From: Candidatus Moraniibacteriota bacterium
Lineage (GTDB): Bacteria; Patescibacteriota; Minisyncoccia; Moranbacterales; UBA2206
Reading direction: 5' to 3'
DNA length: 64,000 nt
NCBI GenBank assembly: GCA_030645735.1
Contig: JAUSNP010000005.1
Location: 72,151 to 136,150 of the forward strand
The notes under the pieces were generated by a model that worked only from the letters and a program-made list of their open reading frames with translations, did not search any database and was not told the origin of the DNA. Shown piece after piece: positions 15,666 to 41,053 of this stretch (the stretch's first letter is position 1; every line of letters starts with the position of its first letter). The translations under genes and the position numbers were made by a program.

Positions 15666-16061
15666 TCACGTAGGGATGCATCCTTGAATATTTTTGCGCA
15701 TTTCATTCTCTCCGGGGTGGGTTAAGGATAGGTTTCGCAGCATTTCATGTGGCTGCGTAATTCTTTGACTAACGCCTTTTTGCCAGTCGGCGTATTGTCG
15801 TCTGGCGATGATGTTTAGGGCGGTATAATAAATAAACCGTCCAACGACATATGCGTAATAGTGTATTGTCGGAATGGTGTTACGCATACATTTTGCAACA
15901 ACACGGCGATTGCGCCATGCCATCACGACACCGATAATGCTGCTGATGCCGGCGACTACCCATGCCATAAAAATTGGGTAGTGAACAACAACCACCGGAC
16001 CCATGGTGACTAGCGCCACCACGAAAATCGGAAAAACAGGAAAAGGGTTGGCCTCTTTCAT
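15666..16061 (-). CDS. Hypothetical membrane protein
   Basis: 131 aa with hydrophobic helices; SD AAAGGAGACAGAGAAAC before the ATG; GC elevated; nested hairpin at 15593-15645 downstream. Confidence 0.45.
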   Translation of the reverse strand: MKEANPFPVFPIFVVALVTMGPVVVVHYPIFMAWVVAGISSIIGVVMAWRNRRVVAKCMRNTIPTIHYYAYVVGRFIYYTALNIIARRQYADWQKGVSQRITQPHEMLRNLSLTHPGENEMRKNIQGCIPT

Positions 16062-21674: not shown

Positions 21675-22190
21675 ATGCAAACTAAAGTACAAAAGGAAGT
21701 TATCATAAAAGATCTAGTTGAAAAATTGAAGGTCTCCAAGGCAGTTGTTTTTTCTGACTACAAAGGATTGAATGTGAAAGACATGACTCAACTTCGTCGC
21801 GATTTGCGAGCTGAGGGTGTGGATTTGCAAGTTTTGAAAAAAACTTTGATGAATCGAGCCTTGAAAGATGCTGGTATTGAAATGGATGCCAAGAAATTGG
21901 AAGGACAAGTGGCCATCGCTGTTTCAAGCAAAGATGAAGTGGCTGCAGCTAAGATTATTGCTAAGCTTGCTAAGATTAATGAAAATTTGAAAATTGTTGG
22001 AGGAATTTTGGGAACCAAAGAATTGTCAGCAGAGGAAGTGAACGCTTTGGCGAAACTTCCAAGCAAGGAAGAATTGTTGTCCAAATTGGTTGGAACTCTT
22101 AATGCTCCAGTTTCAGGATTCGTTAATGTTTTGGCTGGCAATATGAGAGGATTTGTGACTGCCTTGCAGGCAATTGCAGACAAGAAATAA
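21675..22190 (+). CDS. rplJ: 50S ribosomal protein L10
   Basis: 171 aa; L10 N-terminal pattern KDLVEKLKVSKAVVFSDYKGLNVKDMTQLRRDLR. Confidence 0.9.
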   Translation: MQTKVQKEVIIKDLVEKLKVSKAVVFSDYKGLNVKDMTQLRRDLRAEGVDLQVLKKTLMNRALKDAGIEMDAKKLEGQVAIAVSSKDEVAAAKIIAKLAKINENLKIVGGILGTKELSAEEVNALAKLPSKEELLSKLVGTLNAPVSGFVNVLAGNMRGFVTALQAIADKK

Positions 22191-22237
22191 TAAAGAGTTA
22201 ATTAAGTAATTTTTTAATAAATCATTAATCAAAAAAT

Positions 22238-22642
22238 ATGACAGAAGAAAAAAAGGACGTAGTAGTGCCAGAAAAATTCCAAAAGCTTGTTTCTGAAATC
22301 GAAACAATGAGTGTTTTGGACCTAAGTGAGTTGGTGAAAGTTCTAGAAGAAAAATTTGGTGTTAGCGCTGCTGCTCCAATGATGATGGGTGCTGCTCCTG
22401 CTGCTGAGGCTGGTGCTGCTGTAGAAGAAAAATCAGAATTCGATGTTGAAGTGACTGCTTCAGGTGCTTCAAAAATCAACGTAATCAAGGTTGTACGAGA
22501 AGTGACTGGTCTTGGTTTGAAAGAAGCTAAGGATCTAGTTGATGCTGCTCCAAAAGTTATCAAAGAAAAGGTATCAAAGGCTGATGCTGACGCTATGAAG
22601 AAGAAATTGGAAGAAGCTGGTGCAACTGTAACTTTGAAATAG
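22238..22642 (+). CDS. rplL: 50S ribosomal protein L7/L12
   Basis: Ala/Gly hinge and C-terminal domain [24 protein letters not shown]...[11 protein letters not shown]; 134 aa. Confidence 0.92.
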
Positions 22643-22707: not shown

Positions 22708-22807
22708 TGTCATTGCGAGCGACTGAAAGGAGCGCGGCAATCCCATGATTCGTGCATCAGAACTAGAGATTGCCACAGTCGTTCTGCGGAACTCCTTCGC
22801 AATGACA
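22708..22807. repeat. Miniature inverted-repeat element (TGTCATTSC-TIR family), copy 2
   Basis: Termini ctgtcattgcgag...ctccttcgcaatgacaa; internal inverted repeat gcggcaatc...gattgccac. Confidence 0.55.
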
Positions 22808-22826
22808 ATTGTTGTTTAGTTCTTTT

Positions 22827-23885
22827 CTAAAGCAAATGATAAATCAATTTTATAATTGGGAAAATCAGATAATCAACCAGGCTCATTTTATATCTCCGGG
22901 GGTTGTAAATAGATGCTTCTTTTTCCCAGCGTAGAATTATTTTACGCAATTCTGCAACAATGTTCTTTTGTTTGAAGAAGACGCCAGATTCAGCATTGAA
23001 ACTGAAGGATAGGAAATCGATATTTTGTGAACCAACTAGACCTTCCTGATCATCAATTAGCATGATTTTGGCATGATTCATTTCGCGACCAAGAAAAAAC
23101 TTCACACCAAGTTGAGACAGATTGTAAATATGATGTTGATTGGCGCGGTCAACCAGTGGTAAATCGGTTTTTCTAGGTATGATTATTTCAACTTTAACTC
23201 CGCGTCTGACGGCACCATCCAGAAGAGCGGCGAACCAGCGTGGAGGAGTGAAATAAGGGGTGACAATGCGAATGCTTTTTTGAGCTGACAAGATTTTGCG
23301 AGTATAAATTGATTTCAAAGAATACATGCCTAATACTGGCCAATGTTCCAAAAACCAAAATTTTAATTTGCTAGTCAAAGTTTTTTTGCGGAGCATTAGA
23401 ATATGTTTGTTTTTGCCACCCGCCATTTCATATGTATAGGCAAAAGAGGTGACAACAGGTCGAATGACCTTGCCTTTCAATTTCAATTGCAAATCGTTCC
23501 AGGCAGCGAATTTCTTGCCGATGTTGACGCCTCCGACAAAAGCCACATTTTCATCGACAATCAAAATCTTGCGGTGAATGCGTCGCAACCAATCGCTGAA
23601 AAAGACAACTTCAATGCCAGCTGACTGCATAGATTTGATAGATTTTTCACTAAGGTCTGAACTGCCAAAAGCATCTAGCACTAGAATCACCTTGATGCCT
23701 TGTTTGGCTTTTTTTGTGAGTTTGCCAATGAAATCATGACTGCTCGTTGTATCTTCTTGAAAAATATACATTTCCAAAAAGATTGATTTTTTGGCTTGGT
23801 CGATTTCGCTCAGCATAGCATCCCATGCCTTGGTTGAAGTTGTATAAATTTTATATGCCATAGTTTCAATTATATAGCATCTCAC
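22827..23885 (-). CDS. Cardiolipin synthase / phospholipase D family (two HKD motifs); true start probably an internal Met (MAYKIY)
   Basis: HRKILIVDENVAFVGGVNIG and HAKIMLIDDQEGLVGSQNID HKD motifs. Confidence 0.8.
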   Translation of the reverse strand: MRCYIIETMAYKIYTTSTKAWDAMLSEIDQAKKSIFLEMYIFQEDTTSSHDFIGKLTKKAKQGIKVILVLDAFGSSDLSEKSIKSMQSAGIEVVFFSDWLRRIHRKILIVDENVAFVGGVNIGKKFAAWNDLQLKLKGKVIRPVVTSFAYTYEMAGGKNKHILMLRKKTLTSKLKFWFLEHWPVLGMYSLKSIYTRKILSAQKSIRIVTPYFTPPRWFAALLDGAVRRGVKVEIIIPRKTDLPLVDRANQHHIYNLSQLGVKFFLGREMNHAKIMLIDDQEGLVGSQNIDFLSFSFNAESGVFFKQKNIVAELRKIILRWEKEASIYNPRRYKMSLVDYLIFPIIKLIYHLL

Positions 23886-23922
23886 CGTTAGCGCAATTTT
23901 TTAAATAGAGTAGAATGGAAAT

Positions 23923-24531
23923 ATGAATAAAATCGTCCGAATATTTGTCGCCATTTCAATTTTATTGATTATAATTTTATTGCCAATTTTTGTGTTGGTT
24001 TGGCAGGGGGATGTTGTGGTGCAAAAAGTTGCAGCTTTACAAAACAGCGAATCGTCTAAAGCAGATGCTCAAATTTATGCTGAGCATACCCTAGGATTTT
24101 TATTGAACACTGACAATCTGCCAGCGCAAATGACTGAATCAGAGGCAGCCCATATGCAGGATGTGAAAAATTTGTTTGTGGTAGGGGAGTGGATGCTGGT
24201 GATTTCGATAATGATTTTAGTAGGGAGTTATTTTATATTAAAAAATCCGCAAACTTATTGGTGCAGTCTACGAGCCGGATCAGTTTTGACAATTATTATA
24301 ATAATTTTGTTGGGTATTTTTATGTTGTTTGATTTTGAAAATATTTTCATCCACTTTCACCAAATCTTCTTCCCGCAAGGCAACTGGATTTTCCCCTCAA
24401 ATTCATTGATGATTCAGATTTTTCCTGAGAGTTTGTTTGAGTGGTTGGGGATGATGAGCACTTCGGCCAGTTTATTTTTGGCTGGTATTATAGCTATTTT
24501 TTCACAATACAAAATAAAGAAAGGCACATAG
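23923..24531 (+). CDS. Hypothetical polytopic membrane protein
   Basis: 202 aa with several hydrophobic helices. Confidence 0.45.
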   Translation: MNKIVRIFVAISILLIIILLPIFVLVWQGDVVVQKVAALQNSESSKADAQIYAEHTLGFLLNTDNLPAQMTESEAAHMQDVKNLFVVGEWMLVISIMILVGSYFILKNPQTYWCSLRAGSVLTIIIIILLGIFMLFDFENIFIHFHQIFFPQGNWIFPSNSLMIQIFPESLFEWLGMMSTSASLFLAGIIAIFSQYKIKKGT

Positions 24532-24580
24532 CTTGTTAGCTTTGTGCCTTTCGGAGTGTTATAACGATAGCAGGGTGTTT

Positions 24581-25174
24581 TTATGATTTATCCTGCTTCC
24601 AGATTATGACATTGTTATCGTTGAGATGAGCGGCGGCGGTATCGAGTATAGTAGTTGGATTGCCACCGCGGACAGTGATCTTGTTTTGGCCTTCAGTTTT
24701 CGCGAGAAGTGTAGTGGCCAATTCTCGCAAGGCGGGTATATCTTGCGGGTCAATATGTCCCGTACAAGAAATAAGTGCCGTGTCCTTTGGACTGATACTG
24801 AACCAGCTTCGTGGCTTGCTATCAGCAGAAAGACGTACGACCTTGTAGTCATCGCGGATAGCGATGCCATGCGGGCACTTGATGTCGAGATTAGCCCAAA
24901 TGGTTTCCCAGAGCATTTTATAGAAGTTTCCAGTTAAGCGAGGCCCTTCAGACAAACATAGTCCAGTGTAGAGAGCTTTTTCTTTGACGGTGAGCTCTCG
25001 GACGATGACCTCACTACTTTTATCAACTGAATCTGCCGGCGCTGGTGTTGGCTCGAATGAGTCACCACCTCCAGTAAGCATGGCCTCAAAAGCTGACCAA
25101 AACGGCAAGAGCTCTTTGAGCATGCCAAGAAGATCCATAAGAGAAACTCTTTCCTGCGGATTGATGTTGTCCAC
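24581..25174 (-). CDS. Hypothetical protein (GC-elevated island gene; GTG start with strong SD)
   Basis: 197 aa; GAGGAGG 7 nt before GTG; about 50% GC versus about 35-38% in the surrounding core; no known motif. Confidence 0.5.
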   Translation of the reverse strand: MDNINPQERVSLMDLLGMLKELLPFWSAFEAMLTGGGDSFEPTPAPADSVDKSSEVIVRELTVKEKALYTGLCLSEGPRLTGNFYKMLWETIWANLDIKCPHGIAIRDDYKVVRLSADSKPRSWFSISPKDTALISCTGHIDPQDIPALRELATTLLAKTEGQNKITVRGGNPTTILDTAAAHLNDNNVIIWKQDKS

Positions 25175-25222
25175 TTCATTTCCTCCTCGTACTTTTTTTG
25201 AGTTTGTGTTGCTTTGTGAATT

Positions 25223-25438
25223 TCACAGTGATCCTAAAAGAGTATTGATTGCATCTCGTAACTCATCATATCCAAAAAAACGTCCTTTGGATTTGACATC
25301 TCCGATTTCATTGCCCTCCTTGTATATCCTAAATGTTTGGTTGCGGATAGTTTTGAGCGTATCTGCTGGGCCAATAAGTACTCCCAGCTCTAGGTCAATA
25401 GTCATCAAATCATGAACAGTTAATTCTGTCCTTCTCAT
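25223..25438 (-). CDS. Hypothetical small protein (probably starts at the internal ATG, MRRTEL...)
   Basis: SD GGGGGTG 9 nt upstream of the ATG at 25436-25438; co-oriented with and just upstream of the 24581 ORF. Confidence 0.4.
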   Translation of the reverse strand: MRRTELTVHDLMTIDLELGVLIGPADTLKTIRNQTFRIYKEGNEIGDVKSKGRFFGYDELRDAINTLLGSL

Positions 25439-25689
25439 GTGAATTTTCACCCCCAGTTGATTTTTTCATATTGTTAAAGAATTAATAAATTCTAGCAAGG
25501 GTGGGGTGGAAAGTCAATGTTGATTGGAAAAACTAAAAACCTATTCTTTGGGAATGAATCCATACTTTGTTATGGCTATATAGTGGGACGAAGCTAGAAC
25601 TTGCCTTTTTGAATTAGCGCAGTCGTAAGGCTTAGTAGGGTTTTTATGATATAATAAGGCTATATTTATTCAAAAAGATAATTTTTTTT

Positions 25690-26022
25690 ATGTCTAAAAT
25701 AACGGCATTTTTACTCGCGATAGCTCTATCAGTTATTACTGTACTTGCGGACTATTTCATCAAGGAGGCATCATTGAAAACTTCAGTTTGGAGCAAAGCG
25801 CTCTTAGTAGGGAGTTTGATTTATGGGCTGACAGGTCTTGGATGGGTGTTTGTCACGAGACACATGAAACTTTCAACTCTGGGTGTTGTCTACGGAGTAA
25901 GTTGTATAAGTTTATTGGTTCTAGTGAGTGTGTTTACATTTAATGAGAAAATAACTACTATAGAAATTTTTGGAATCATTCTCGGCATGAGTTCTATTAT
26001 AATTTTATATAGATTTGCTTAA
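25690..26022 (+). CDS. Small 4-TM membrane transporter, SMR/DMT-like
   Basis: 110 aa, four hydrophobic helices, EmrE-like size and architecture. Confidence 0.45.
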   Translation: MSKITAFLLAIALSVITVLADYFIKEASLKTSVWSKALLVGSLIYGLTGLGWVFVTRHMKLSTLGVVYGVSCISLLVLVSVFTFNEKITTIEIFGIILGMSSIIILYRFA

Positions 26023-26069
26023 TTTAAAAGCGCCCTTGAGGGGCGCCTTTAAATTTGATTGGGTTGGGG
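26021..26069. repeat. 49-bp direct repeat, copy A (terminator hairpin plus flank)
   Basis: aatttaaaagcgcccttgaggggcgcctttaaatttgattgggttgggg; 48/49 identical to 27544-27592. Confidence 0.7.
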
Positions 26070-26207
26070 CTATGGGACGAAGTTGGAACTTTGTCGTCCT
26101 CAGATTTAGTTATGCGTGAACAACACATTTGCAAAAATGCACAGAGATGGTAATATAATACATTGTTCTTTAATTTATGAATAAACTAATCACGAAGGAG
26201 ATATAGC

Positions 26208-27428
26208 ATGAGCATAAAGGCCATTATAGTGAAAATCCTTCCTGCATTTAAAGGACGGAATTATCGCCTCCATGTTTGGGGACAATTAATCTCATCTTCC
26301 GGCACTTGGCTTCAAAATGTCACCATGGGCTGGTACATTTGGGATCTGACTCATTCGGAGAGTCTAACTGCTTTGATTTTGGCAATGCCACGCTGTGTCA
26401 GCGCATGTCTGACGATATTTGGAGGAATAATTTCAGACAAGTTTGACAAGAGAGCAGTGCTATATGTCACTAATTTTCTGGGCATGGCACAAGCGATGTT
26501 ACTGGGCTATATGGTAATTAATAATGTTTCGCGTATATGGATTGTTATATTACTTTCCATTTGCTTGGGACTAATTAATGCCATTGACGGACCGGCTCGC
26601 CATTCTTTTCTCCCTGAAATTGTTGACCGAACTGAAATAAGACAAACGAGTTCGTTTAATTCCGCCATCGGTCAGTCGTCTCAATTTGTCGGTTCGAGTC
26701 TTGGCGCAGTGCTACTTGGATTAATCGGAACTGGCTGGACATTTGTCTTGAACGGTCTATCATTTATGGCTGTTATAATTATGCTTAGGATGATGAAAAT
26801 CGACAAGAAAACGGAGATTAGGAAAGACCAGAATAACTATTTCAGGATGTTTAAGGAGGGCGTGGCATATGTCGCTCGTCAACCAAAGATTCGCTGGTAT
26901 CTGGTACTTATTGGAAGTCTAAATTTTTTCGGCTTTTCATACCGAGGGATACTTCCTGTCGTAGTTGAGCAAATTTTTCATTCCGGGGCGAAAAATTATG
27001 CAGTGCTTATGGCTTGTGCCGGAATAGGTGCTCTTATCGGATCCACATTGTCCTCAGCAAAATCAAAGATTTCATTGAATTTTTTTGTTGTTTGCGGAAG
27101 CTTGATTGTTGGTTCCGCATTAATCCTGTTTACTTTGACATCTGTTTTTATACTGGGCATGTCGCTTATGTTTGCTGCAGGTTTCGGTTTAACCCTAAGC
27201 TCATCTAGTGTGCGAGGGGAGTGTCAGGAAGTGATGTCATCGGATATGCGAGGCAGAGTCAATGGCTTTGTTATGATGTTTGCGCTCGGTGGCACAGGTC
27301 TTGGAGGCATAGTAACGGGAAAATTAGCAGAGCTATTTGGAAGCCAATTAGCGCTGATAGTAAGCGGCGTTATGCTGATTATTATCGCCATCATTGTTTT
27401 TGTATTAGACAGGCTTTCAAAACATTAA
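26208..27428 (+). CDS. MFS transporter (EntS/macrolide-efflux-like)
   Basis: 406 aa, about 12 TM segments, MFS-type motifs; SD AGGAG upstream; terminator hairpin GTCCTTTCC...GGAAAGGAC at 27470-27498. Confidence 0.8.
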   Translation: MSIKAIIVKILPAFKGRNYRLHVWGQLISSSGTWLQNVTMGWYIWDLTHSESLTALILAMPRCVSACLTIFGGIISDKFDKRAVLYVTNFLGMAQAMLLGYMVINNVSRIWIVILLSICLGLINAIDGPARHSFLPEIVDRTEIRQTSSFNSAIGQSSQFVGSSLGAVLLGLIGTGWTFVLNGLSFMAVIIMLRMMKIDKKTEIRKDQNNYFRMFKEGVAYVARQPKIRWYLVLIGSLNFFGFSYRGILPVVVEQIFHSGAKNYAVLMACAGIGALIGSTLSSAKSKISLNFFVVCGSLIVGSALILFTLTSVFILGMSLMFAAGFGLTLSSSSVRGECQEVMSSDMRGRVNGFVMMFALGGTGLGGIVTGKLAELFGSQLALIVSGVMLIIIAIIVFVLDRLSKH

Positions 27429-27543
27429 TTTTATGTAGTAAAATCAGAAATAAAGCAAAGTCCTTTCCTATTGTATGGGAAAGGACTTTCTTAATTGTCT
27501 GCATCCATATACACCCGTCCGAATCCCTCTCTAAAATAAATCA

Positions 27544-27592
27544 AATTTAAAAGCGCCCTTGAGGGGCGCCTTTAAATTTAATTGGGTTGGGG
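27544..27592. repeat. 49-bp direct repeat, copy B, abutting the tRNA-Gln 3' end
   Basis: Near-identical to 26021-26069; the last bases overlap the acceptor 3' end of the minus-strand tRNA. Confidence 0.7.
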
Positions 27593-27658
27593 AGGAGGGA
27601 TTCGGACCCCCGGATGCATGGACCAAAACCATGTGCCTTACCACTTGGCTACTCCCCA
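27587..27658 (-). tRNA. tRNA-Gln (anticodon UUG inferred)
   Basis: Reverse complement TGGGGAGTAGCCAAGTGGTAAGGCACATGGTTTTGGTCCATGCATCCGGGGGTCCGAATCCCTCCTCCCCA folds as a cloverleaf: 7-bp acceptor, D-loop AAGTGGTAA, anticodon stem CATGG/CCATG with loop UUUUGGU, T-arm GGGGG-UCCGAAU-CCCUC. The T-loop is slightly atypical (C55). Confidence 0.6.
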
Positions 27659-27782
27659 ATGTAATAAAATTCGAAATTCGAACATCGAAATTCGAGACAA
27701 TATCTAATATTAAAATTTTAAATAATTAAACAATTCTGTATCTTTTGAATTTGTTTCGGATTTCTTATTTCGTGCTTTGAAT

Positions 27783-29417
27783 TTACTCCTCAGTCACTAC
27801 TTTCGCTCCCATGATTTCCATGGCGGAGCTTAGGAGTGAATTTTGCTCGCCAGGTGTGTTGTCGGTGGCTTGTTCCTCGGGCATTTTCGGAGCTTCGACA
27901 ATTCCAGCTTCTTTATAGGTGACGATTTTCAGACGAATTTGCAACCCTAAAATTTTACCAAGAACTGACTCGACTGTCAACTTATTGGCATGATCATTCA
28001 ATTTTTCTTTGTAAAAGTCGTATGGCGTAGCTAGGGTAATTTCGTTGCCAACAACTTCAATGGCTTGCCAATTGGAAGCTAAAAGAGCCGCCAAGGAATG
28101 ATTGTGGCTTTTGATTTCAGTTAGGAGTCTTTTCCAATTGCTTTTCACTGTGTGTAGGTCGGTGTCGCCATCTGGCAAGACTTGTTCTGTGATTGGTGTT
28201 TCTTGCGGGACAACAATTTCTGCCTGCATTGGTGCGGACATTTGCGGCGTTTGAATGGTTGGTGCAGTTGCTTGCAAATTGATGTTGCTTTTGGTTTCTT
28301 GGGTTGTGTAGTTCACTGAGTTGGCTGGAAAAGTGTGAGTGGCGCGGATGATGGCAATCTCCAATGGTAACTGTGGCAACATGGAAGCGGCAATTTTGTT
28401 TTGCGCTTCAAGCAAAAGATTCAAGGTCAAGATGATGCTTGGCAATTCCGCTTTCTCAATCTGAGACACCATAGTTTTGATTTGGTCTTGCGTGGCTTCA
28501 TAGGAAAAATTGTTTTTGAGTTCGGGGTTGATTTTCAACAGCATCAATTGTCGCGTGTAATTAATCAAAGATTTAGTGAAAATTTGCAGGTCATAGCCAT
28601 TGTTCAAAAGTTCATTGATTTTGGCAATGGCACTAGTGGCATCTTTGGCCAAAATCATGCCGGCCACTTCAGCGGAAAATTTGCGATCGGTGGTGCCCAA
28701 AATTTCTTCCACTTCTTTAGCGGTGATATTTTTGTCTTCCAAGGCGATGATTTGTCCAAAAAGACTTTCAGCATCGCGCATACCACCTTCAGCTGAAATA
28801 GCAATCATCTCCAATGAATCAGCGTCGATGTTGATTTTTTCTGCCTTGGCGATCAAGGTCAATTTTTCAATGATATTTTCAATGGGCAGACGCGTGAAAT
28901 CAAAGCGCTGACAGCGTGAAAGAATAGTGGCAGGCACTTTGTGAATTTCTGTGGTGGCTAGAATGAAAATCACATGCGCTGGCGGTTCTTCCAAAGTTTT
29001 CAGTAGGGCATTGAAAGCGCCCGTGGAAAGCATGTGGACTTCATCAATAATGTAGACTTTGTATTTCAAAGCGGTCGGTGGTAAACCAATAGTTTCACGC
29101 AATTCACGAATGTTGTCCACACCCGTATTGGAAGCGGCATCAATTTCGATGATGTCGAGTGATTTGTTTTCAGCAATCATTTGGCAGTTGCGACATTTCT
29201 CGCAAGTCACCGCATCTTTGAGATCTGTGCAGTTAACTGTCTTAGCTAGAATTCTGGCGATGGAGGTTTTGCCTGTGCCGCGTGGGCCAGTGAAAAGGTA
29301 GGCTTGGCCAATGCGATTGTTTTTGATGGCATTAGAAAGAGTCTGGACAATATGTTTTTGTCCGATTATTTCCGAAAAATTTTTGGGTCGATATTTTCTA
29401 TATAAAGTCGTAGACAT
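27783..29417 (-). CDS. dnaX: DNA polymerase III subunit gamma/tau
   Basis: YRPKNFSEIIGQKHIVQTLSNAI...GPRGTGKTSIARILAK AAA+ clamp-loader; zinc-module Cys; 544 aa. Confidence 0.9.
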   Translation of the reverse strand: MSTTLYRKYRPKNFSEIIGQKHIVQTLSNAIKNNRIGQAYLFTGPRGTGKTSIARILAKTVNCTDLKDAVTCEKCRNCQMIAENKSLDIIEIDAASNTGVDNIRELRETIGLPPTALKYKVYIIDEVHMLSTGAFNALLKTLEEPPAHVIFILATTEIHKVPATILSRCQRFDFTRLPIENIIEKLTLIAKAEKINIDADSLEMIAISAEGGMRDAESLFGQIIALEDKNITAKEVEEILGTTDRKFSAEVAGMILAKDATSAIAKINELLNNGYDLQIFTKSLINYTRQLMLLKINPELKNNFSYEATQDQIKTMVSQIEKAELPSIILTLNLLLEAQNKIAASMLPQLPLEIAIIRATHTFPANSVNYTTQETKSNINLQATAPTIQTPQMSAPMQAEIVVPQETPITEQVLPDGDTDLHTVKSNWKRLLTEIKSHNHSLAALLASNWQAIEVVGNEITLATPYDFYKEKLNDHANKLTVESVLGKILGLQIRLKIVTYKEAGIVEAPKMPEEQATDNTPGEQNSLLSSAMEIMGAKVVTEE

Positions 29418-29528
29418 AGTAGTTTCTAAGGTTATGAAGCTATTATAGCATTAAAATAAATTGTCCGCCAAAACCAGTTAGAGACGCGATTAATCGCGTC
29501 TCTACAGCGTATTTATAGAAAAATTGGG

Positions 29529-29981
29529 CTATTTTTTGAACACCCAGAATTTGTAACCAACGAAGTTCCACAATAGGCCAGAAGCGCTTCCACAGATAGC
29601 ACCGATGTTGCCCCAAATGATGCCTGAAATAGCCGCGCTGGTTAGCATTGGTTTAATGAAGCTCACCACGAGGGTGGCTGCAGTGACATTGATGAAAGCA
29701 CCTACAATGCTGACACCAATGAATTGATAGAATTTCTTGTCGTTGTTTTCAGTAGATTTGTCTTGGAAGGTCCAATGCTTGTTGATGTAGTAGCTCATGA
29801 TGACCGCAGCAATGAAGGATAACGCTTTGAAAAATGCATAGGGAAGTCCAGAATTCTGTTTAGTGGTGTACATTAGGATGTTGAGGATGGTGAAATCTAC
29901 GCCGGTATTCATCACACCAACTACAAAAAATTTAGCAAATTGTTTGATGAAAGGAAAGCGTGCGAAAAAATTCTTAAACAT
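29529..29981 (-). CDS. GtrA-family membrane protein
   Basis: 150 aa; FAKFFVVGVMNTGVDFTILNIL GtrA-like N-terminus; 4 TM. Confidence 0.65.
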   Translation of the reverse strand: MFKNFFARFPFIKQFAKFFVVGVMNTGVDFTILNILMYTTKQNSGLPYAFFKALSFIAAVIMSYYINKHWTFQDKSTENNDKKFYQFIGVSIVGAFINVTAATLVVSFIKPMLTSAAISGIIWGNIGAICGSASGLLWNFVGYKFWVFKK

Positions 29982-29983
29982 AT

Positions 29984-30727
29984 TTATTCGTTTAGAGGCT
30001 TGTTAAGTTCTTTGCGAAGTTCTTCGATGTCGGGAGCCCATTCATCGATGATAGAAAAATCTTTTTTGGGTTCTTCTTGAATTGGAGTTGCTTCTGGTTC
30101 GTCGACAGTTGGTTTTTTGTCATTGATGATGTCGTCAATGTCGGTGTTTCTTTCTTGCGCTTTCATTGAAGCGAAACTGCGCATAGCACTGCCTTTCTGA
30201 ATTACATTTTCAATGGATGCCCAATCTGAATCGATGTCGCGTGGAGTCACCAAAGTCACTTCATCGCCTGGTTCAACTTTGAAATAGGTGATGGAAGCCA
30301 AAAGTACGCGATAGGGTTTGCCATTAGCGATGATGAAAAAATTGCCATCAGCATCTTGATTCACAATTCCAATTAGACGGGTTCTTTCGATGGGTCCAAT
30401 TTGTTTGTAGATGAATGATCCGTCTGGAGTGATGGTCAATTTCAACATATCACCCTCGATCAATTTTGATTTTGAAGCATAGTTGGCTGGCACGGGATAT
30501 TGCTTGTCATCAGTGCCCAACATAATTTGACCATCGAAAGTTCCTTCGATGACTCGGCCTTCTTCATCATCATCCATCTTTTTCTTGCGGCCAACTTTTT
30601 TCTTGCCTTCCAGTTGCAAAAGCATTGCCTTGGCGGATTGCAAGCTCTTTTCAGAGTTATAAATCATCTCACGCAAAGCTTGAACTTTATCAGAAATATT
30701 TTCTTGTGGATCCCTTTCTTCAGTCAT
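29984..30727 (-). CDS. Hypothetical protein (acidic termini, central beta-rich region)
   Basis: 247-aa ORF immediately upstream of the GtrA-like gene; no motif recognised. Confidence 0.45.
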   Translation of the reverse strand: MTEERDPQENISDKVQALREMIYNSEKSLQSAKAMLLQLEGKKKVGRKKKMDDDEEGRVIEGTFDGQIMLGTDDKQYPVPANYASKSKLIEGDMLKLTITPDGSFIYKQIGPIERTRLIGIVNQDADGNFFIIANGKPYRVLLASITYFKVEPGDEVTLVTPRDIDSDWASIENVIQKGSAMRSFASMKAQERNTDIDDIINDKKPTVDEPEATPIQEEPKKDFSIIDEWAPDIEELRKELNKPLNE

Positions 30728-30866
30728 TTTATTTTTTTTGATTTGTTTTTATTTTATATATAAATTATACAATCATTTTACTAGGCATGCAAGGCTTGCT
30801 CGGGTGTGGATAACATAATATAATAGAATCGTTGAGAAGATGTGGGTTTATATTTTCTAAAAAAAT

Positions 30867-31190
30867 ATGACTAATCAAAATTGTTGGGAATTCAAAAAAT
30901 GCGGACGAGAAATCGATGGCGCCAATGTTGATAAGTATGGAGTTTGTCCAGCCGCGGACAATGTTTCAGCAGATGGATTTTGCGGTGGCAAAAATGGCGG
31001 GCGCGCTTGTGTGTATATTATTGGTACGCTATGCGATGGCATTTGCCAGGTGTCACTGCGCAACAAAGAAAAAAAATGTGAAGAATGTGAATTCCACAGC
31101 CAACTCAAAAAAGAACATCCAGATGAAATGAACATTTTTGCCTATTTGGATTATGTAAACAAAGACAAGAAAAAGTTGAGTGAAAAATAG
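30867..31190 (+). CDS. Cysteine-rich small protein (9 Cys; CWEFKKCG...CEEC)
   Basis: 107 aa; Cys at 6, 11, 27, 39, 48, 56, 60, 71, 74; lysine-rich C-terminus; GTGTGGATAAC motif 50 bp upstream. Confidence 0.5.
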   Translation: MTNQNCWEFKKCGREIDGANVDKYGVCPAADNVSADGFCGGKNGGRACVYIIGTLCDGICQVSLRNKEKKCEECEFHSQLKKEHPDEMNIFAYLDYVNKDKKKLSEK

Positions 31191-31345
31191 TTTCAGCATC
31201 AGCGTTTGAGGCAGGGAATTGAACCCTGTTTTTTTGTTGACAAAGCTCATGGTTTTGCTAGGATTATCGTCAGCAGCAGTACCTTAAACTAGTTTAGCTA
31301 ATAGCTAAATATAATCTAATAAAAGTCAGAAAGGGAGATGCGGTC

Positions 31346-31879
31346 ATGACGAAATACTTGCTAGATAACTATGCATGGTCTTGTTTGGCTTTTGGCTTGA
31401 TTGCTTTTCTGTGCTTGGATGGGTGGATTACTAAATTTATTCATGCTATGAGTGAGCGGTTTCAACAGAAGTATGGTTGGGACAATATGCTGTTGGCAAA
31501 ATACTTAGCCGGAGCGCTTATGTCCATCTGGATTTTTATTGCTTTGGTGGCGACATTGTCGGATTTGCGAACGCTAGTGCTAAACATGTGTGTGGCTGGG
31601 TTGCTTAGTATCCCACCAGCCTCCCTTCTGCTTCTGGGCAAAAAGGCAAGAGGTAACTCATTATCTGCAAAAGTAATGCTTATTATTTTTAAGCAAATCC
31701 TTTGGATAGCTTTGATTGCGGTCGTCAGGATAAACTACATTGAAGAACAGCCACTGCAATGGGTTGCAATCATGGCGTTGGGAGTAATCGCCTTGATTGG
31801 TATTATCTATCTGGTTGCTCCAATCAACAAGAAATGCACGGACAATTTGCCGTGCCGTTATCCGGGAATTTCTGCTTGA
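31346..31879 (+). CDS. Hypothetical membrane protein
   Basis: 177 aa, 4-5 hydrophobic helices; SD GGGAG; GC elevated; GC-rich terminator hairpin at 31906-31950. Confidence 0.5.
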   Translation: MTKYLLDNYAWSCLAFGLIAFLCLDGWITKFIHAMSERFQQKYGWDNMLLAKYLAGALMSIWIFIALVATLSDLRTLVLNMCVAGLLSIPPASLLLLGKKARGNSLSAKVMLIIFKQILWIALIAVVRINYIEEQPLQWVAIMALGVIALIGIIYLVAPINKKCTDNLPCRYPGISA

Positions 31880-32040
31880 CCATGCTCAGGCGCGCGCCAC
31901 CCCAAAGCCCGACCTTGTTTTCACAAGAGGTTGGGCTTTTCTTATTATTTGACGCGCTGATTATTTCTTGTTATTCTGCATCAATGCCAAACTTGGCATA
32001 CAGATTGTTCTTACTAATAATTTTAGATTGAGGGGGTGAG

Positions 32041-32376
32041 ATGGCAGAGACAATAATTAGAACATTTGAAGATCTGGTCAAGCTAATTATGTTGGGCAAT
32101 CCCGATCCAGCAGCTGGAGGGCTTGTGCTATTAGATCGCCAGCTCTGGAATCAACGCTGGGTCAAGTGTTCGATTTATCTGGGCGATGATAGCCCTGATG
32201 TGCTGTTGAGCGATTCTGCTGATAAAAATATTCGCACGACTAGCGAGGGAGGAGTTGAGCTGAGGGTCAATATGCTAGTTGATCAACATAAAAAGTTAAT
32301 CGTGTATAAGGTCGAAGCAGACGGCCGACCCAGAAAGTTCATTTGGGAGATGGACTATAAAAAGAGTAGCAAATAA
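32041..32376 (+). CDS. Hypothetical protein
   Basis: 111 aa; SD GGGGGTGAG; GC elevated. Confidence 0.4.
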   Translation: MAETIIRTFEDLVKLIMLGNPDPAAGGLVLLDRQLWNQRWVKCSIYLGDDSPDVLLSDSADKNIRTTSEGGVELRVNMLVDQHKKLIVYKVEADGRPRKFIWEMDYKKSSK

Positions 32377-32663
32377 ATATTTGCTGCCACCACACGCGGG
32401 GTGCTTCTTTATGAGGCGCCCCTGTTTTTTATGTTTAAAAATAATTTTTTTAGGATTTGAAACCGAAGTGGCAATTTTTGGGTGATTGACACAAATTGCA
32501 TAGTTTTCTAAGATATAAATATCAAGAAGTAATTCAAGTTCTTTAATCCCCACTGTGGGGTTTCGCAAATGCGAAATAACAAAGCCGAAAAGGAGGCGGC
32601 GAAGTCTAGTCTAGTTTTTTTGTGAGAGGTAAAATAAAATAAATCTCAACAAAAAGCGAGGCA

Positions 32664-33110
32664 ATGATGGAACAGATTAAATTGATGAAGCATAAGCTTT
32701 TATCGGCGCTGATGGCAGCACTCGTTCTCTTGTCCGGTGGATTCGTTGCATCTGCAACCGCCGTGCCTAATGGCGTGACGGGATTGGCGACAAATGCCCT
32801 GGTGGTGATGCCCAACACCGAGAAGGGACAAATCGCGGCTACTTCACATGACGCTGGCGTCATCATGTTGCTCATGGCCAAGGCGGGTCCGGCAGATCAG
32901 GAGGGTCTCGACCAGCGGAGTCTGGGGAATGACTCCTGGGGCGACAAGGTGATGGTCAAGGACGGATCGGCGGCCGACTGGGAACATCTCGGCAAAGCGG
33001 GCGGTCAATGGGTGGCCCATGGTTCATCCCGCAGTATCTATAAGGCGATGGCAGTGCAGGTCGGCGATCAGATCAACTACAGCGGCAAGGTCGAGAGCGC
33101 CATCATCTGA
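32664..33110 (+). CDS. Secreted hypothetical protein (signal peptide) of strongly elevated GC
   Basis: Signal-like N-terminus MKHKLLSALMAALVLLSGGFVASATA; about 58% GC; GC-rich terminator (ATAGCCAGA...TCTGGCTAT+T6) at 33149-33197. Confidence 0.55.
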   Translation: MMEQIKLMKHKLLSALMAALVLLSGGFVASATAVPNGVTGLATNALVVMPNTEKGQIAATSHDAGVIMLLMAKAGPADQEGLDQRSLGNDSWGDKVMVKDGSAADWEHLGKAGGQWVAHGSSRSIYKAMAVQVGDQINYSGKVESAII

Positions 33111-33237
33111 TTCCCGGGCGAATCCCTCAACACAAGCTACACTCGTGGCAAACATAGCCAGAGCCCTCATCCGGGGGTTTCTGGCTATCTTTTTTATTTA
33201 AAGAAATTTTAGTGTTCCTAATGGAGCGCTTTTTTAT

Positions 33238-33840
33238 TTGCCCAAAGCTGGGTTTTGGAATAAAATTTTTAGTAGAATACAAAATAAAAATAATTTCAAA
33301 AACAAAAACATGGGCGAGCCTGCTTATAAAAATCTTTTGACTTACAAATATGCCGTGCTTATTTATGATATGAACAAAGAATTCATCGCACGATTTGTTT
33401 CTGGGGCAGAAAACATGAGGCAACGTCAACAGATGGACCAAGCGGCACGCTCATCCAAACAATGCATCGTCGAAGGCGCGATGCAGGGCACGAGTCTCAA
33501 GGGTTATATCAAAATGCTTGGAGTTTCGCGAGGGAGTTGGGAGGAATTGCTGGAGGATTATAAGGATATTGCCAGGCTTGGGAAAATTGAGGTTTGGAAT
33601 TCTGAGGGGTTGAGGAGGGAAAGGGGGTTCAGGGTTTTCGTGAAAGACAACGAACCTCTACCTCCTACACCTCCGCTACCTCCTGACTTCGCTGTGTCGG
33701 TCAACATTATGATTGATCTCATCACAAGGACAAACTTTCTTCTGGATCAACAAAAAAGAGCGCTAGAAGAAAAGTTTTTGAGAGAGGGTGGTTACACTGA
33801 AAATTTGTACAAAAAACGCAGAGAAACGAGAGGGTTTTAG
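33238..33840 (+). CDS. Four-helix-bundle protein (23S rRNA intervening-sequence protein family-like); real start probably MGEPAYK
   Basis: The segment YKYAVLIYDMNKEFIARFVSGAENMRQRQQMDQAARSSKQCIVEGAMQGTSLKGYIKMLGVSRGSWEELL matches the general pattern of the family; terminator at 33862-33888. Confidence 0.45.
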   Translation: MPKAGFWNKIFSRIQNKNNFKNKNMGEPAYKNLLTYKYAVLIYDMNKEFIARFVSGAENMRQRQQMDQAARSSKQCIVEGAMQGTSLKGYIKMLGVSRGSWEELLEDYKDIARLGKIEVWNSEGLRRERGFRVFVKDNEPLPPTPPLPPDFAVSVNIMIDLITRTNFLLDQQKRALEEKFLREGGYTENLYKKRRETRGF

Positions 33841-34003
33841 TTTGTAATATTGAATATCCAGCAGCCTTGTTAGGGCTGTTTTTTTGTCGCTCGACCTGTG
33901 GATAACTCGCCCTTGCCAATGTGGGTGAGTGGAGTAAAATAGGGAGGTAGGTAACTCAAGTGGTACATTGTGGGGATTCACAATTAGATACTACTGAATA
34001 AGC

Positions 34004-34047
34004 GCGAGATTGCCACGTCGTCCGCGGCGGACTCCTCGCAATGACAA
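34004..34047. repeat. Half copy (right arm) of the TGTCATTSC-TIR element family
   Basis: gagattgccacgtcgtccgcggcggactcctcgcaatgaca is about 85% identical to the right arm of copy 2 (22766-22807); no left arm detectable. Confidence 0.45.
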
Positions 34048-34052
34048 TAAAG

Positions 34053-34487
34053 ATGTTCATAGGCGAATACCAACATTTAGTTGACGAGAAAAAAAGATTG
34101 GCGGTGCCAAGCAAGTTTCGAGTCGAGTTGAAAAACAAAGTTGTGGTGACACGCGGACTTGATAAATGTTTGTTTGTCTATCCAATGAAAGCTTGGGAAG
34201 AGTTGGCCAGCAAATTGGGAACCTTGCCAGTCGGAGAAGCTGGCACCCGAAGTTTCACGCGTTTGATGTTGGCTGGAGCAGTGGATGTGGATGTGGACAA
34301 GCAAGGAAGAATTTTGATTCCAGATTATTTGAAAGAATATGCAGGACTGGCGAAAAATGTTGTGATTGCAGGACTGTATAATCGTTTAGAAATTTGGGAT
34401 GAAAAGAAATGGAACGCATACAAGAAAGGTGCTGAGAAAAATTCAGATGAGATTGCGGAACAGTTGGGCAAGTTAGGAGTATATTAG
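34053..34487 (+). CDS. mraZ: Transcriptional regulator MraZ
   Basis: MFIGEYQHLVDEKKRLAVPSKFR and a second SpoVT/AbrB-like repeat; the ORF-track start at 34041 would overlap the repeat element, so the ATG at 34053 is preferred. Confidence 0.85.
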   Translation: MFIGEYQHLVDEKKRLAVPSKFRVELKNKVVVTRGLDKCLFVYPMKAWEELASKLGTLPVGEAGTRSFTRLMLAGAVDVDVDKQGRILIPDYLKEYAGLAKNVVIAGLYNRLEIWDEKKWNAYKKGAEKNSDEIAEQLGKLGVY

Positions 34488-34488
34488 G

Positions 34489-34610
34489 AAATTCAAAATC
34501 CAAAATCTCAAATTCCAAATAAATACAAATATCAAAATCCAAAATGTTTTGAGTTTAGAAAATTGTAATTTTGAATTTATTTGGGATTTGTAATTTATAA
34601 TTTGTAATTT
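34489..34610. repeat. Palindromic array of AAAATCCAAAAT-type motifs (mraZ-rsmH spacer)
   Basis: Left half aaatccaaaat/aaatctcaaattccaaat repeats; right half the reverse-complement attttgaattt/atttgggattt units. The architecture matches the AAGTCTAA arrays with a different unit. Confidence 0.5.
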
Positions 34611-34612
34611 AG

Positions 34613-35551
34613 ATGGTTATTCATAAACCGGTTTTGTTGAAAGAAAGTATAGAACGATTAAATTTGAAATCTGAGTCCATTGCTGTGGACGCCACTCTGG
34701 GGGGAGGCGGACACAGCATTGGCATGTTAAATATAATTGGCAGAAGTGGAAAGCTCGTTGGTATCGATCAGGACACAGTGGCGGTGGAAAATTTCCGACA
34801 GAAAAATTCCGCGGACAATGTGATTTTGGTCAAAGACAATTTCGCTAATCTGAAAAATGTTTTGACAGAATTTGGTCCGCCAGCTGGCGGAGAAAAAGTA
34901 GATGCGATTCTGGCTGACCTAGGATATTCTTCCATGCAATTGGAAGACACAGGGATTGGCATGAGTTTTCTGCAAGATGCGCCATTGGACATGCGCCTTG
35001 ATCGTGATGGTAAGTTGTCTGCTAAGGCGGTAGTCAACACCTATTCACAAGGCGAGTTGAGCAGGCTTATCAAAAATTTTGGCGAAGAAAGATTTGCCAG
35101 TATCATTGCCAAGCGAATTGTGGATGCTCGCAAGAAAAAAGAAATTGAGACGACCACTGATTTGGTGGAAATCATCAACACGGCTATTCCAGAAAAATTC
35201 AAGCACGGCAAACTGCATCCAGCCACTAAAACATTTCAGGCATTGCGCATCGAAGTCAATCATGAATTGGAGGTTCTGGAAAAATTCATTCCGCAAGCAA
35301 TTGAAGCATTGAATCCGGGCGGACGATTGGCCATCATTTCATTTCATTCATTAGAAGACAGAATAGTTAAGGATATATTTCGGACACATGCTAGGGGATG
35401 CATCTGTCCAGCTGATTTTCCGATTTGCCAATGTGGCCAAATGGCGAAGGTCAAAATCATCACTAAAAAACCAGTTGAGCCAAGCGTTGAGGAGATTGCA
35501 GAAAATCCGAGATCACGCAGTGCCAAACTGAGAGTTTGTGAGAAGTTATAA
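34613..35551 (+). CDS. rsmH: 16S rRNA (cytosine1402-N4)-methyltransferase
   Basis: HKPVLLKESIERL...DATLGGGGHS; MraW family; 312 aa. Confidence 0.9.
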   Translation: MVIHKPVLLKESIERLNLKSESIAVDATLGGGGHSIGMLNIIGRSGKLVGIDQDTVAVENFRQKNSADNVILVKDNFANLKNVLTEFGPPAGGEKVDAILADLGYSSMQLEDTGIGMSFLQDAPLDMRLDRDGKLSAKAVVNTYSQGELSRLIKNFGEERFASIIAKRIVDARKKKEIETTTDLVEIINTAIPEKFKHGKLHPATKTFQALRIEVNHELEVLEKFIPQAIEALNPGGRLAIISFHSLEDRIVKDIFRTHARGCICPADFPICQCGQMAKVKIITKKPVEPSVEEIAENPRSRSAKLRVCEKL

Positions 35552-35665
35552 TCCCAGTTAAATAGCCAGCTACGCTGGCCTGTCCACTACGGAGACAGAA
35601 TTTAACGGGATAAAAAACAAACATAAATATAAACAAACAATTTATTGTCAGGGGGCTGAAAATAA

Positions 35666-36094
35666 ATGTCGCGAGTTTTGATTCTAAACAAATCTGCATC
35701 GAGCTTGAAGAACGCTCGCTTGCAACGAAATTCGACCTATAGCAATGGCGCCTTTTGCGCTGTGCGCAGGAGCTTTTCGGAAAAGAGGAAATCTTTCAGT
35801 GCTGGCAGTGCCAATTTGAATTTGGTGTCTTTGGTTTTTGTGATGGTGTTCTGTGTTTGCATCGGTGGTGCGGCCTATCTCTATCAAGTGAATGATATCG
35901 CCACTAAGGGCTATGAAATTCGTGATTTGGAAAATCAGATTCAAGATTTGAGCAAGGAAAGCAAAAAGATGGAAATTCGGGAAGTGGAATTGCGCTCGAT
36001 GTATAATATTGAAAAAGCTTCACAAGACTTGAATCTAGTTAACTCAAATGATGTGACATATGTAGAAATCGACGGGCCAGTAGCTATGCGATAA
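35666..36094 (+). CDS. ftsL: Cell-division protein FtsL-like (single TM plus coiled coil)
   Basis: Sits between rsmH and ftsI; TM segment LVSLVFVMVFCVCIGGAAYL followed by a coiled coil. Confidence 0.55.
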   Translation: MSRVLILNKSASSLKNARLQRNSTYSNGAFCAVRRSFSEKRKSFSAGSANLNLVSLVFVMVFCVCIGGAAYLYQVNDIATKGYEIRDLENQIQDLSKESKKMEIREVELRSMYNIEKASQDLNLVNSNDVTYVEIDGPVAMR

Positions 36095-36096
36095 TG

Positions 36097-36283
36097 GAGC
36101 TAGATTTCTTATCTCACCGCTTATTTTAAAAACTTCTATATTGCTTGCCTGCTAAAATTTTCTAATTTTGGCTGCAAACCCTTCAAAGCTCGTCAGGTTA
36201 TCTCTATAGCCTTCCTCACTTTTCATGGTTTTCGCTCAAAATTATAAAATTCTATCTAGGCATGAGATAAGAAATCTAGCTCT
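36097..36283. mobile_element. 187-bp element with perfect 21-bp terminal inverted repeats filling the ftsL-ftsI spacer
   Basis: ggagctagatttcttatctca (36097-36117) versus tgagataagaaatctagctct (36263-36283); no ORF inside. Confidence 0.6.
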
Positions 36284-40698: not shown

Positions 40699-40947
40699 AT
40701 GGCAATATTTATCTATCAATTAATTAGCGAAGATAGAACGAAAACATATATTGGCTTTTCGGATGATTTAGATAGAAGAATTTCTGAACATTTAGCTGGT
40801 AAGGTAAAAACAACAAAGAATTTCGGTGAGTTTAGCCATAGAATTTTAGAGAAAGTTAATGATATCAGGTTAGCTAGAATTGCTGAAAAATATTGGAAAT
40901 CAGCATCTGGCAGGAAAAAATTAAAAGAACAGTTTGATGTAGAATAG
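40699..40947 (+). CDS. GIY-YIG nuclease superfamily small protein
   Basis: IFIYQLISEDRTKTYIGFSDDLDRRISEHLAG: GIY...YIG, conserved Arg and E/H; 82 aa; resembles free-standing UPF0213/Slx1-like GIY-YIG proteins. Confidence 0.7.
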   Translation: MAIFIYQLISEDRTKTYIGFSDDLDRRISEHLAGKVKTTKNFGEFSHRILEKVNDIRLARIAEKYWKSASGRKKLKEQFDVE

Positions 40948-40954
40948 GAAACAT

Positions 40955-41029
40955 GCCGCCATCGTCTAGCCCGGTCAGGACGCCAGGTTCTCATCCTGGA
41001 AATCAGGGGTTCGAATCCCCTTGGCGGTA
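40955..41029 (+). tRNA. tRNA-Glu (anticodon CUC)
   Basis: GCCGCCATCGTCTAGCCCGGTCAGGACGCCAGGTTCTCATCCTGGAAATCAGGGGTTCGAATCCCCTTGGCGGTA: 7-bp acceptor, Glu-type D-arm TCGTCTAG, anticodon loop TTCTCAT, T-loop GGTTCGAATCC. Confidence 0.8.
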
Positions 41030-41053
41030 CTTTTAAAAATAATTTCAAACTTT

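Follow-up and report, generated by a model that had tools for sequence, protein, structure and literature searches.

A direct repeat at the 3' end of tRNA-Gln brackets an MFS transporter gene in a hypervariable accessory-gene slot of a Candidatus Moranbacteria genome

tRNA-associated islands and integrative elements are bounded by direct repeats, attL and attR, that include the 3' end of the tRNA gene, and integration reportedly prefers certain sublocations within tRNA genes, as Williams is said to have described in 2002. Integron cassettes (attC) and the pdif modules of Acinetobacter are gene modules that carry no recombinase and are bounded by short sites. Bacteria of the Candidate Phyla Radiation (CPR) have tiny genomes, and little is known of how they exchange accessory genes. 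Here we describe the tRNA-Gln(UUG) locus in a 64-kb stretch of DNA (the window) from a 142.6-kb contig of a Candidatus Moranbacteria metagenome-assembled genome (MAG). In this locus, an MFS transporter gene lies between two copies of a 49-bp direct repeat, the second of which runs into the tRNA. The direct repeat beside the tRNA is real, and so is the hotspot that holds it, which belongs to a known general kind, the tRNA-associated variable island without an integrase. At roughly even confidence, we read the locus as the part nearest the tRNA of a hypervariable slot for accessory genes, into which an MFS module was inserted by recombination at the tRNA 3' end.

The two repeat copies, A and B (positions in Table 1), agree at 48 of 49 bases and differ by a G at 26057 against an A at 27580; a preliminary description of the locus was right about where they lie and wrong in calling them identical. 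Read on the tRNA strand, copy B consists of CCCCAA, which is the last six bases of the tRNA (acceptor stem and discriminator), a CCCA trailer, a palindromic hairpin, and a T-run. Its overlap with the tRNA comes to 6 nucleotides (nt) by the Rfam boundaries or 10 nt by the ARAGORN boundaries (27583-27659), which bears out the earlier statement that this copy runs into the tRNA 3' end. The hairpin is a bidirectional terminator: on the tRNA strand, it has 20 bp, -26 kcal/mol, and a z score of -8.7, and it also scores on the plus strand. Copy A starts inside the stop codon of a gene for a 110-amino-acid (aa) membrane protein, and its last six nucleotides, TTGGGG, are also the first six of a conserved motif, D4-2. 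Between the copies lie 1,474 bp (26070-27543) that hold the MFS gene with its 5' region, its terminator, and a short tRNA-like fragment. The 31-nt core of the repeat occurs exactly twice in the window and never in 100 shuffles, and the count remains two when up to 3 mismatches are allowed.

We then compared the repeat with the same region in relatives, which are metagenome-contig loci labeled L085 and so on (80 loci from a scan with the tRNA-Gln 3' end). In two distant relatives, L166 and L111, tRNA-Gln has a homologous trailer and terminator on its 3' side. The sequence after the tRNA in L166 is AATTAAATTTGAAGGCGCCCACGAAAAGGCGTTTTT; in L111, a similar hairpin comes next to the tRNA, with a structured element beyond it. 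Both are homologous to copy B and to what surrounds it. Because relatives carry this trailer and terminator after tRNA-Gln, copy B is native and ancestral in position, and copy A is the secondary copy. In a Logan assembly of run SRR13727526, made independently, the locus is split into three contigs, which correspond to window positions 22713-26050, 26027-27573 (1,547 bp, with the MFS gene), and 27550-36199. The breaks fall precisely at the 36 nt over which the repeat is exact, where a k=31 graph must split. The repeat is present in the reads, and the order of the three pieces is not confirmed by the same assembly. On each side, the G or A variant goes cleanly with its own flank, and there is no extra branch in the Logan graph.

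The surroundings of this tRNA vary greatly among relatives. The adjacency of tRNA-Gln and dnaX is kept in L092, L109, L121, L134, L146, L152, L167, and others, which answers the earlier question of whether dnaX stands beside this tRNA elsewhere. (As a synteny probe of contigs, dnaX saturated the scan with its universal motif, and its top match was 38% identical.) The contents of the rplL-to-tRNA interval differ in every genome compared, among relatives of 50 to 70% identity. In L092, the slot holds a PLD gene only, followed by tRNA-Gln, a small GIY-YIG open reading frame (ORF), and dnaX; in L124, a PLD gene adjoins tRNA-Gln; and in L152, there are three orphan genes. The L146 interval combines a PBP gene, a methylase and what is likely a restriction-modification set, a large 281-aa orphan, a duplicated tRNA 3' half, and a GIY-YIG ORF. 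Two D4 copies, an AbiU2-like protein, orphans, and a GIY-YIG ORF make up the slot of L147, and that of L136 has two D4 copies, a pentapeptide-repeat protein, and a pair that, judged by the sequences only, is likely a nucleotidyltransferase/HEPN toxin-antitoxin system. In L085 (contig ERZ27315072 k141_1039298), the slot contains Nramp, PBP, MFS, and pentapeptide-repeat genes, a pseudo-tRNA, a GIY-YIG ORF, D4, and genes for Rep, a serine recombinase of 526 aa, AAA_21, and a methylase.

A pair of these relatives differs exactly at the tRNA. Across the pentapeptide gene and the trailer of the tRNA, as far as TTGGGGAGGAAGG, L085 and L089 share 87% DNA identity. Past this point, L089 continues into an intact tRNA-Gln, and L085 continues into a pseudo-tRNA with a deleted T-loop, a GIY-YIG cassette, D4, and an element with Rep and the large serine recombinase. 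This divergence at the tRNA, together with duplications of the tRNA-Gln 3' half in L146, L167, and L109, implies that recombination at the tRNA-Gln 3' end has been recurrent in the clade. The hypervariability of the slot therefore supports the earlier reading of a hotspot at a tRNA with no integrase left, and no recombinase was found in the window ORFs of at least 200 aa. Likewise, tblastn gave no match in the window to the L085 serine recombinase or Rep. The tRNA-Gln 3' flank between rplL and dnaX is a fast-turnover slot in the Moranbacteria-like clade that holds, in one relative or another, transporters, restriction-modification genes, toxin-antitoxin genes, an Abi gene, and orphan genes and whose edges carry fragments that mimic the tRNA end.

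One such fragment recurs among relatives. D4 (TGGGACGAAGnTnGAACTT) occurs in the window at 25584 and 26073, the second time beginning 4 nt past copy A, where D4-2 (TTGGGGCTATGGGACGAAGTTGGAACTTTG) forms the junction with the MFS module and mimics a tRNA 3' end. With its left flank (TTGGGGCTATGGGACGAAGTTGGAAC), it agrees with the reverse-complemented tRNA end (TTGGGGAGGAGGGATTCGGAC) over the first six bases and differs from it thereafter. A 16-nt core of D4, often identical, recurs at this locus in at least seven other CPR contigs, L085, L091, L101, L136 (twice), L147 (twice), and L161 among them, and the proteins of these contigs are only 50 to 70% identical; the consensus is TTGTTGRGGCTATGGGACGAAGTTGGAACTTAT, and conservation stops after about 33 nt. 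The paired copies are 517 bp apart in L136 and 415 bp apart in L147, directly past rplL, and L091 has a copy upstream of its homologue of the 197-aa protein described below. To the left of D4, all copies have a terminator or a T-run followed by TTG, as is found downstream of tRNA-Gln in relatives, and in L136, the flank of one copy matches the resident tRNA flank (TTTTCTTTGTTGRGG). In the window, L161, and L136, D4 is the far edge of a one-gene slot beside tRNA-Gln, and the cargo between the two is unrelated (the MFS gene, a 216-aa orphan, and a 220-aa orphan, respectively). D4 was absent from IMG/VR viral contigs.

Two other identities for D4 were tried and rejected. As a riboswitch or leader of both transporters, D4 had no Rfam match even at an E value of ≤10, its orientation and distance to genes are not fixed elsewhere, and its conservation ends at about 33 nt. 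As a cryptic tRNA, it received no ARAGORN or Rfam tRNA call and has no acceptor partner strand.

Just left of copy B, the preliminary description had placed a 17-nt inverted copy of the tRNA 3' end. Such a copy exists, one base away (27515-27532), but after the T-loop, it follows an element found in relatives and not the tRNA, reading ACGGG as in the element and not ACCCCC as in the tRNA. It agrees with the T-arm of the tRNA without mismatch over 13 nt (27517-27529; GTCCGAATCCCTC) and also at an upstream TGCATCC. On the tRNA strand, 27535 to 27500 reads TTAGAGAGGGATTCGGACGGGTG, which matches TTAGAAAGGATTCGAACGGGTGG in L124 and GGAGGGATTCGAACGGGCAG in L111. The element in question is a palindrome of about 140 nt that lies 3' of tRNA-Gln in L108 (as three tandem copies), L111, L119, L124, L160, and L161. 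At its start, the T-arm and acceptor of the tRNA are copied in inverted orientation and at its end in direct orientation, and it folds as a long hairpin with compensatory changes at 13 of 34 consensus pairs; the ends of the L086 version match that locus's own tRNA-Gln(CUG). The Rfam RtT model (RF00391) found no match in the window, and it gave the L108 element 30.1 bits, below the gathering score of 45; this likeness of the element to RtT, its sole one in Rfam, is architectural only. The elements lie at positions 129 to 560 in L108, about 970 to 1115 in L111, 1381 to 1510 in L124, about 5950 to 6095 in L161, and 9740 to 9880 in L086.

The bracketed gene encodes a member of the MFS, with matches to PF05977 (E = 2e-44, 152.3 bits against a cutoff of 27, residues 25 to 399) and PF07690 (E = 2e-30, 106.1 bits against a cutoff of 33.4). 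No NCBIfam equivalog cutoff was reached (TIGR00900, 170.7 bits against 319.6), and the putative role of the protein as an efflux transporter is taken from family membership only. Its closest homologues are 67 to 71% identical and occur in related Moranbacteria, in the same slot in L085 and two genes from tRNA-Gln(UUG) in L089. The intrinsic terminator of the gene is homologous to those after the MFS genes of L085, L088, and L089. In L085, L089, and L136, the MFS homologue is followed by a convergent gene for a 192-aa pentapeptide-repeat protein (PF13599, PF00805), a pairing that is lost in the window. The 110-aa protein upstream had been called SMR-like, which holds loosely, in that it resembles a half-size DMT protein, and fails in that it falls below every SMR and EamA cutoff: it has no Pfam SMR match, 18.4 bits with EamA (cutoff, 28.2), 17.5 bits with QacJ (cutoff, 210), and a weak match to YedA. 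Its family of DMT-like proteins of about 110 aa has 25 homologues in varied genomic contexts.

Table 1. Features of the tRNA-Gln(UUG) locus in window coordinates (SD, Shine-Dalgarno sequence; TM, transmembrane segment)
Feature	Position	Strand	Remarks
rplJ-rplL	21675-22642		
PLD-type protein gene	22827-23885	-	
Lit-family protein gene	23923-24531	+	
197-aa lineage-specific hypothetical protein (MDO8240906.1, Q7T51_02935)	24581-25174	-	AGGAGG SD; 48.0% GC
71-aa ORF (MDO8240907.1)	25223-25438	-	First in operon; 39.4% GC
Sigma-70-type promoter of the 71/197-aa operon	25489-25517	-	TTGACT-N17-TAGAAT
D4-1	25566-25602	+	Degenerate, 4-nt insertion; between the 71/197-aa operon and the divergent SMR-like gene
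110-aa half-size DMT/SMR-like membrane protein	25690-26022	+	4 TM; without SD
Repeat copy A	26021-26069	.	Starts inside stop codon of 110-aa gene
D4-2	26064-26093	+	Junction of copy A and MFS module
MFS transporter, MFS_3/DHA3-type (EntS-like), 406 aa	26208-27428	+	Pfam; AAGGAG SD
Intrinsic terminator of the MFS gene	27457-27489	+	-22.8 kcal/mol, z score of -6.5
RtT-like element remnant	27500-27535	-	Truncated start (about 25 nt); sequence match to element of relatives
Repeat copy B	27544-27592	.	Last 6 nt of tRNA-Gln, 4-nt trailer, palindromic intrinsic terminator of the tRNA
tRNA-Gln(UUG), intact	27587-27658	-	Rfam tRNA model, 61.8 bits; locus anchor
dnaX	27783-29417	-	Upstream of tRNA-Gln, same strand

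Several further observations concern the flanks of this locus. Directly past the rplL terminator lies a palindromic element, CATTGCGAGCGA...GGCAATC...GATTGCC...TCGCAATGAC, at 22713-22810; a Logan contig breaks at its start, which suggests that the element is repeated elsewhere in the sample. The intergenic region between dnaX and tRNA-Gln (27660-27782) has three near copies of AAATTCGA(A/G) (aaattcgaaattcgaacatcgaaattcgag) in what is likely the tRNA promoter region. Small GIY-YIG ORFs adjoin tRNA-Gln in L092, L136, L146, L147, L152, and L161, and such ORFs are sometimes flanked by tRNA 3'-end copies and inverted repeats of about 22 nt (CCGTAGCTTTAGCGAAGGATTG; L085, L088, and L109). The window has a GIY-YIG-like ORF at 40699-40932 (plus strand), directly upstream of tRNA-Glu(CUC) at 40955-41030, that is 37% identical to the ORF of L147 (E = 4e-7).

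From the anatomy of the repeat, we infer an insertion as its origin, with the direction and mechanism as follows. In the most economical course of events, the 110-aa gene and tRNA-Gln would at first have been convergent with one common bidirectional terminator, and the SMR-like stop codon that overlaps copy A fits such a pair. A circular DNA with D4, the MFS gene, and a copy of a tRNA-Gln trailer and terminator, probably taken from a related strain's own tRNA-Gln flank, would have recombined at or near the tRNA end. By this event, a 1.47-kb one-gene module (D4, MFS gene, terminator, RtT-like remnant, and terminator copy) would have entered between the tRNA and the common terminator, making copy A, which brings the native flank of the 110-aa gene, plus D4 an attL-like junction and copy B plus the tRNA an attR-like junction. 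The recombination may have been site specific, with an enzyme that acted in trans or has since been lost, or it may have been a Campbell-type single crossover of the circle. At present, given that the 110-aa stop codon overlaps the start of copy A, copy A terminates the SMR-like gene and copy B the tRNA, and homologous recombination between the two could delete the MFS gene through its flanking repeats.

A number of results weigh against such an insertion. The composition of the MFS gene is native (42.1% GC and 40.3% GC at third codon positions [GC3]), and that of the module at 26070-27543, 40.7% GC, is equal to the window mean (baselines, 41.2 ± 4.0% GC and 41.3 ± 7.2% GC3). The MFS homologues of L085 and L089 have a homologous terminator and no D4 upstream; since homologues without D4 occupy the same slot, the MFS gene may be an older resident. 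No recombinase Pfam domain, and no tyrosine recombinase, was found in ORFs of at least 200 aa across the window. The tRNA part of the repeat is only 6 to 10 nt, far below classical tRNA att sites, and D4, whose role is putative, has no dyad symmetry. The RtT-like remnant lies inside the supposed insert, though it would be expected in the native tRNA flank, and therefore, the insert must stem from another tRNA-Gln flank. Finally, the 197-aa, 71-aa, 110-aa, and MFS proteins are all singletons at 90% identity, and no relative above 90% is in the databases to serve as an empty-site or strain-level comparator.

The sequence would equally be explained by a local duplication or gene conversion without mobile DNA, an alternative that we consider possible but rather unlikely. 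Here, the MFS gene and D4-2 would already have been at tRNA-Gln, and template switching or microhomology-mediated repair would have placed a copy of 43 nt of trailer and terminator beside the TTGGGG of D4-2, where it would have been retained because it terminates the SMR-like gene. The MFS gene beside tRNA-Gln in L089 and the homologous terminator in all relatives agree with this, as do the native composition of the module, the native look of both copy B and its left flank with the RtT-like remnant, and the exact end of copy A at the TTGGGG common to D4 and the tRNA. The microhomology is just 6 to 10 nt, however, and a local event leaves unexplained both the fast turnover of the slot and the recurrence, in many genomes, of D4 junctions next to terminators like those of the tRNA flank.

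The repeat could also have misled the assembly, such that the real genome has the SMR-like gene, one repeat, and the tRNA, and a separate segment of MFS gene and repeat, episomal or from another strain, was threaded through the repeat. The k=31 graph is ambiguous, with Logan contigs that break at the 36-nt exact repeat and the MFS segment as a 1,547-bp contig of its own. Against that, reads of 100 to 150 nt span a 49-bp repeat trivially, the MAG contig runs to 142.6 kb, the G/A difference is linked to the flanks with no extra branch, and relatives hold the MFS gene in the same chromosomal slot; we therefore regard an assembly or population artifact as highly improbable. The idea that the repeat is a common terminator reused at unrelated loci draws on its strong palindrome, which scores as active on both strands, but we rejected it in practice. 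A tolerance of 3 mismatches still yields only two copies in the 64 kb, both at one locus and 1.5 kb from each other, and the identity runs 13 nt beyond the hairpin into the trailer and the acceptor end of the tRNA. The earlier view, in which the repeat takes in the end of the tRNA and is no generic terminator, thus stands.

The preliminary description had also presented two minus-strand ORFs to the left of the cassette, of 197 and 71 aa, as GC-rich, led by strong GGAGG SD sequences, and foreign looking. The first two attributes are true of the 197-aa gene (48.0% GC, AGGAGG) and not of the 71-aa ORF (39.4% GC, an imperfect GGGGGTGA). That core genes lack SD sequences is roughly right, as 58 of the 71 window ORFs, over which ORF statistics were taken, have no 4-nt SD core. 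An SD core of at least 5 nt leads 8 of the 71, with a mean GC content of 45.9% versus 40.6% for the rest (Mann-Whitney P = 5.6e-5), and the SD-led ORFs are mostly without a Pfam domain (for example, 261-764, 7351-7644, 15666-16061, 24581-25174, 49155-50060, and 55894-56571). An SD sequence with higher GC is a distinct genome-wide class of orphan genes and not an island mark. In composition, the 197-aa ORF alone was raised among the genes of the locus (48%, 1.7 standard deviations above the mean). With the MFS module native in GC, its homologues in the same slot, and the 197-aa gene vertically inherited as described below, the claim of foreign-looking genes is not supported, and there is no sign of recent foreign origin for the genes of the locus. 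Elsewhere in the window, a 148-aa ORF at 32664-33110 (plus strand; signal-peptide-like N terminus, 57% GC, 68.5% GC3, and no Pfam match) is the strongest compositional outlier by far and a better candidate for horizontal transfer than these genes.

The 197-aa protein has just 2 homologues (about 50% identical) among 1.84 billion representatives, and its family has a conserved ANLDIxCPHGIAIR motif. Its gene and the convergent Lit gene share a terminator (24519-24552). In L090, which comes from a different metagenome, the homologue likewise converges on a Lit gene (70% identical), with a similar terminator between them, and is preceded by an identical 29-nt promoter, TTGACTTTCCACCCCACCCTTGCTAGAAT, and a GGAGG SD sequence. 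The Lit neighbor and the promoter kept in L090 indicate vertical descent, and the 197-aa gene is an old, fast-evolving resident of the flank; the whole 71/197-aa operon lies outside the MFS module. The AlphaFold2 model of the protein, built from a 3-sequence alignment, was unusable (pLDDT of 41). In favor of the suggestion that the two ORFs are a toxin-immunity or other two-component pair imported with an island, they are co-oriented, 48 nt apart, under one promoter, and both without annotation. Hidden Markov model searches of the two gave no family match; the 197-aa protein matched nothing in Pfam, PHROGs, NCBIfam, PADLOC, the PDB, or phage genomes, and the 71-aa ORF had no homologue in the family libraries, phage genomes, and fetched loci against which it was compared. 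Moreover, the 71-aa partner is absent between the identical promoter and the 197-aa homologue in L090 and absent at the L091 homologue, and the conserved Lit neighbor points to vertical descent. An imported pair is thus very unlikely, and both hypothetical proteins are better seen as lineage-specific residents.

The recurrence of D4 invites a bolder proposal, which we put forward as doubtful. Moranbacteria-like CPR bacteria might have a cassette system not yet described, with D4 as its recognition arm, in which one-gene modules excise with the donor's tRNA-Gln trailer and terminator and reinsert at the TTGGGG end of tRNA-Gln. Such modules would build head-to-tail arrays (D4-SMR-R, D4-MFS-R, and tRNA, where R is the repeat), with the enzyme supplied in trans, for example by the large serine recombinase of L085 or a tRNA-flanking GIY-YIG nuclease. 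If true, the gene shuffling of integrons and pdif modules would here have a counterpart anchored at a tRNA.

Set beside the described systems, the locus resembles tRNA-associated islands in that a direct repeat with the tRNA 3' end brackets accessory DNA 3' of an intact tRNA, the locus varies among relatives, and L085 has a recombinase-bearing element at the same tRNA. Unlike such islands, it comprises one gene (1.47 kb), with no integrase and no foreign composition, and only 6 to 10 nt of the tRNA are repeated, the rest being trailer and terminator. RtT repeats (RF00391), known from the E. coli tyrT operon after tRNA-Tyr, are repeated units, each with a tRNA 3'-end copy at its close, and the relatives similarly have one to three tandem structured units of about 140 nt after tRNA-Gln whose ends copy the acceptor and T-arm. 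The score falls below gathering, however, the tRNA and the phylum differ, the window holds a fragment only, and the 49-bp repeat is no RtT unit. Free-standing GIY-YIG homing endonucleases occur in tRNA gene regions, for example, SegB of phage T4 (PMC2330249, PMC13096335). Many relatives likewise have small GIY-YIG ORFs adjoining tRNA-Gln, with copies of the tRNA 3' end on their flanks (L085, L109, and L146), but at the window's own tRNA-Gln there is none (one is at tRNA-Glu), these are cellular CPR genomes and not phage, and the nuclease activity is putative. In contrast with integrons and pdif modules, there is no evidence of IntI or Xer, D4 is an asymmetric motif of about 33 nt with no attC- or dif-like dyad, the window genes have their own promoters and terminators, and mobility is putative. 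Like those modules, the one-gene units here have a short conserved motif at one edge, lie head to tail by a fixed anchor, and carry no recombinase inside. What may be new is only D4, as a conserved junction motif, and the layout resembling cassettes that it suggests; should D4 be a recombination site, it would provide a simple way to swap single genes without carrying an integrase.

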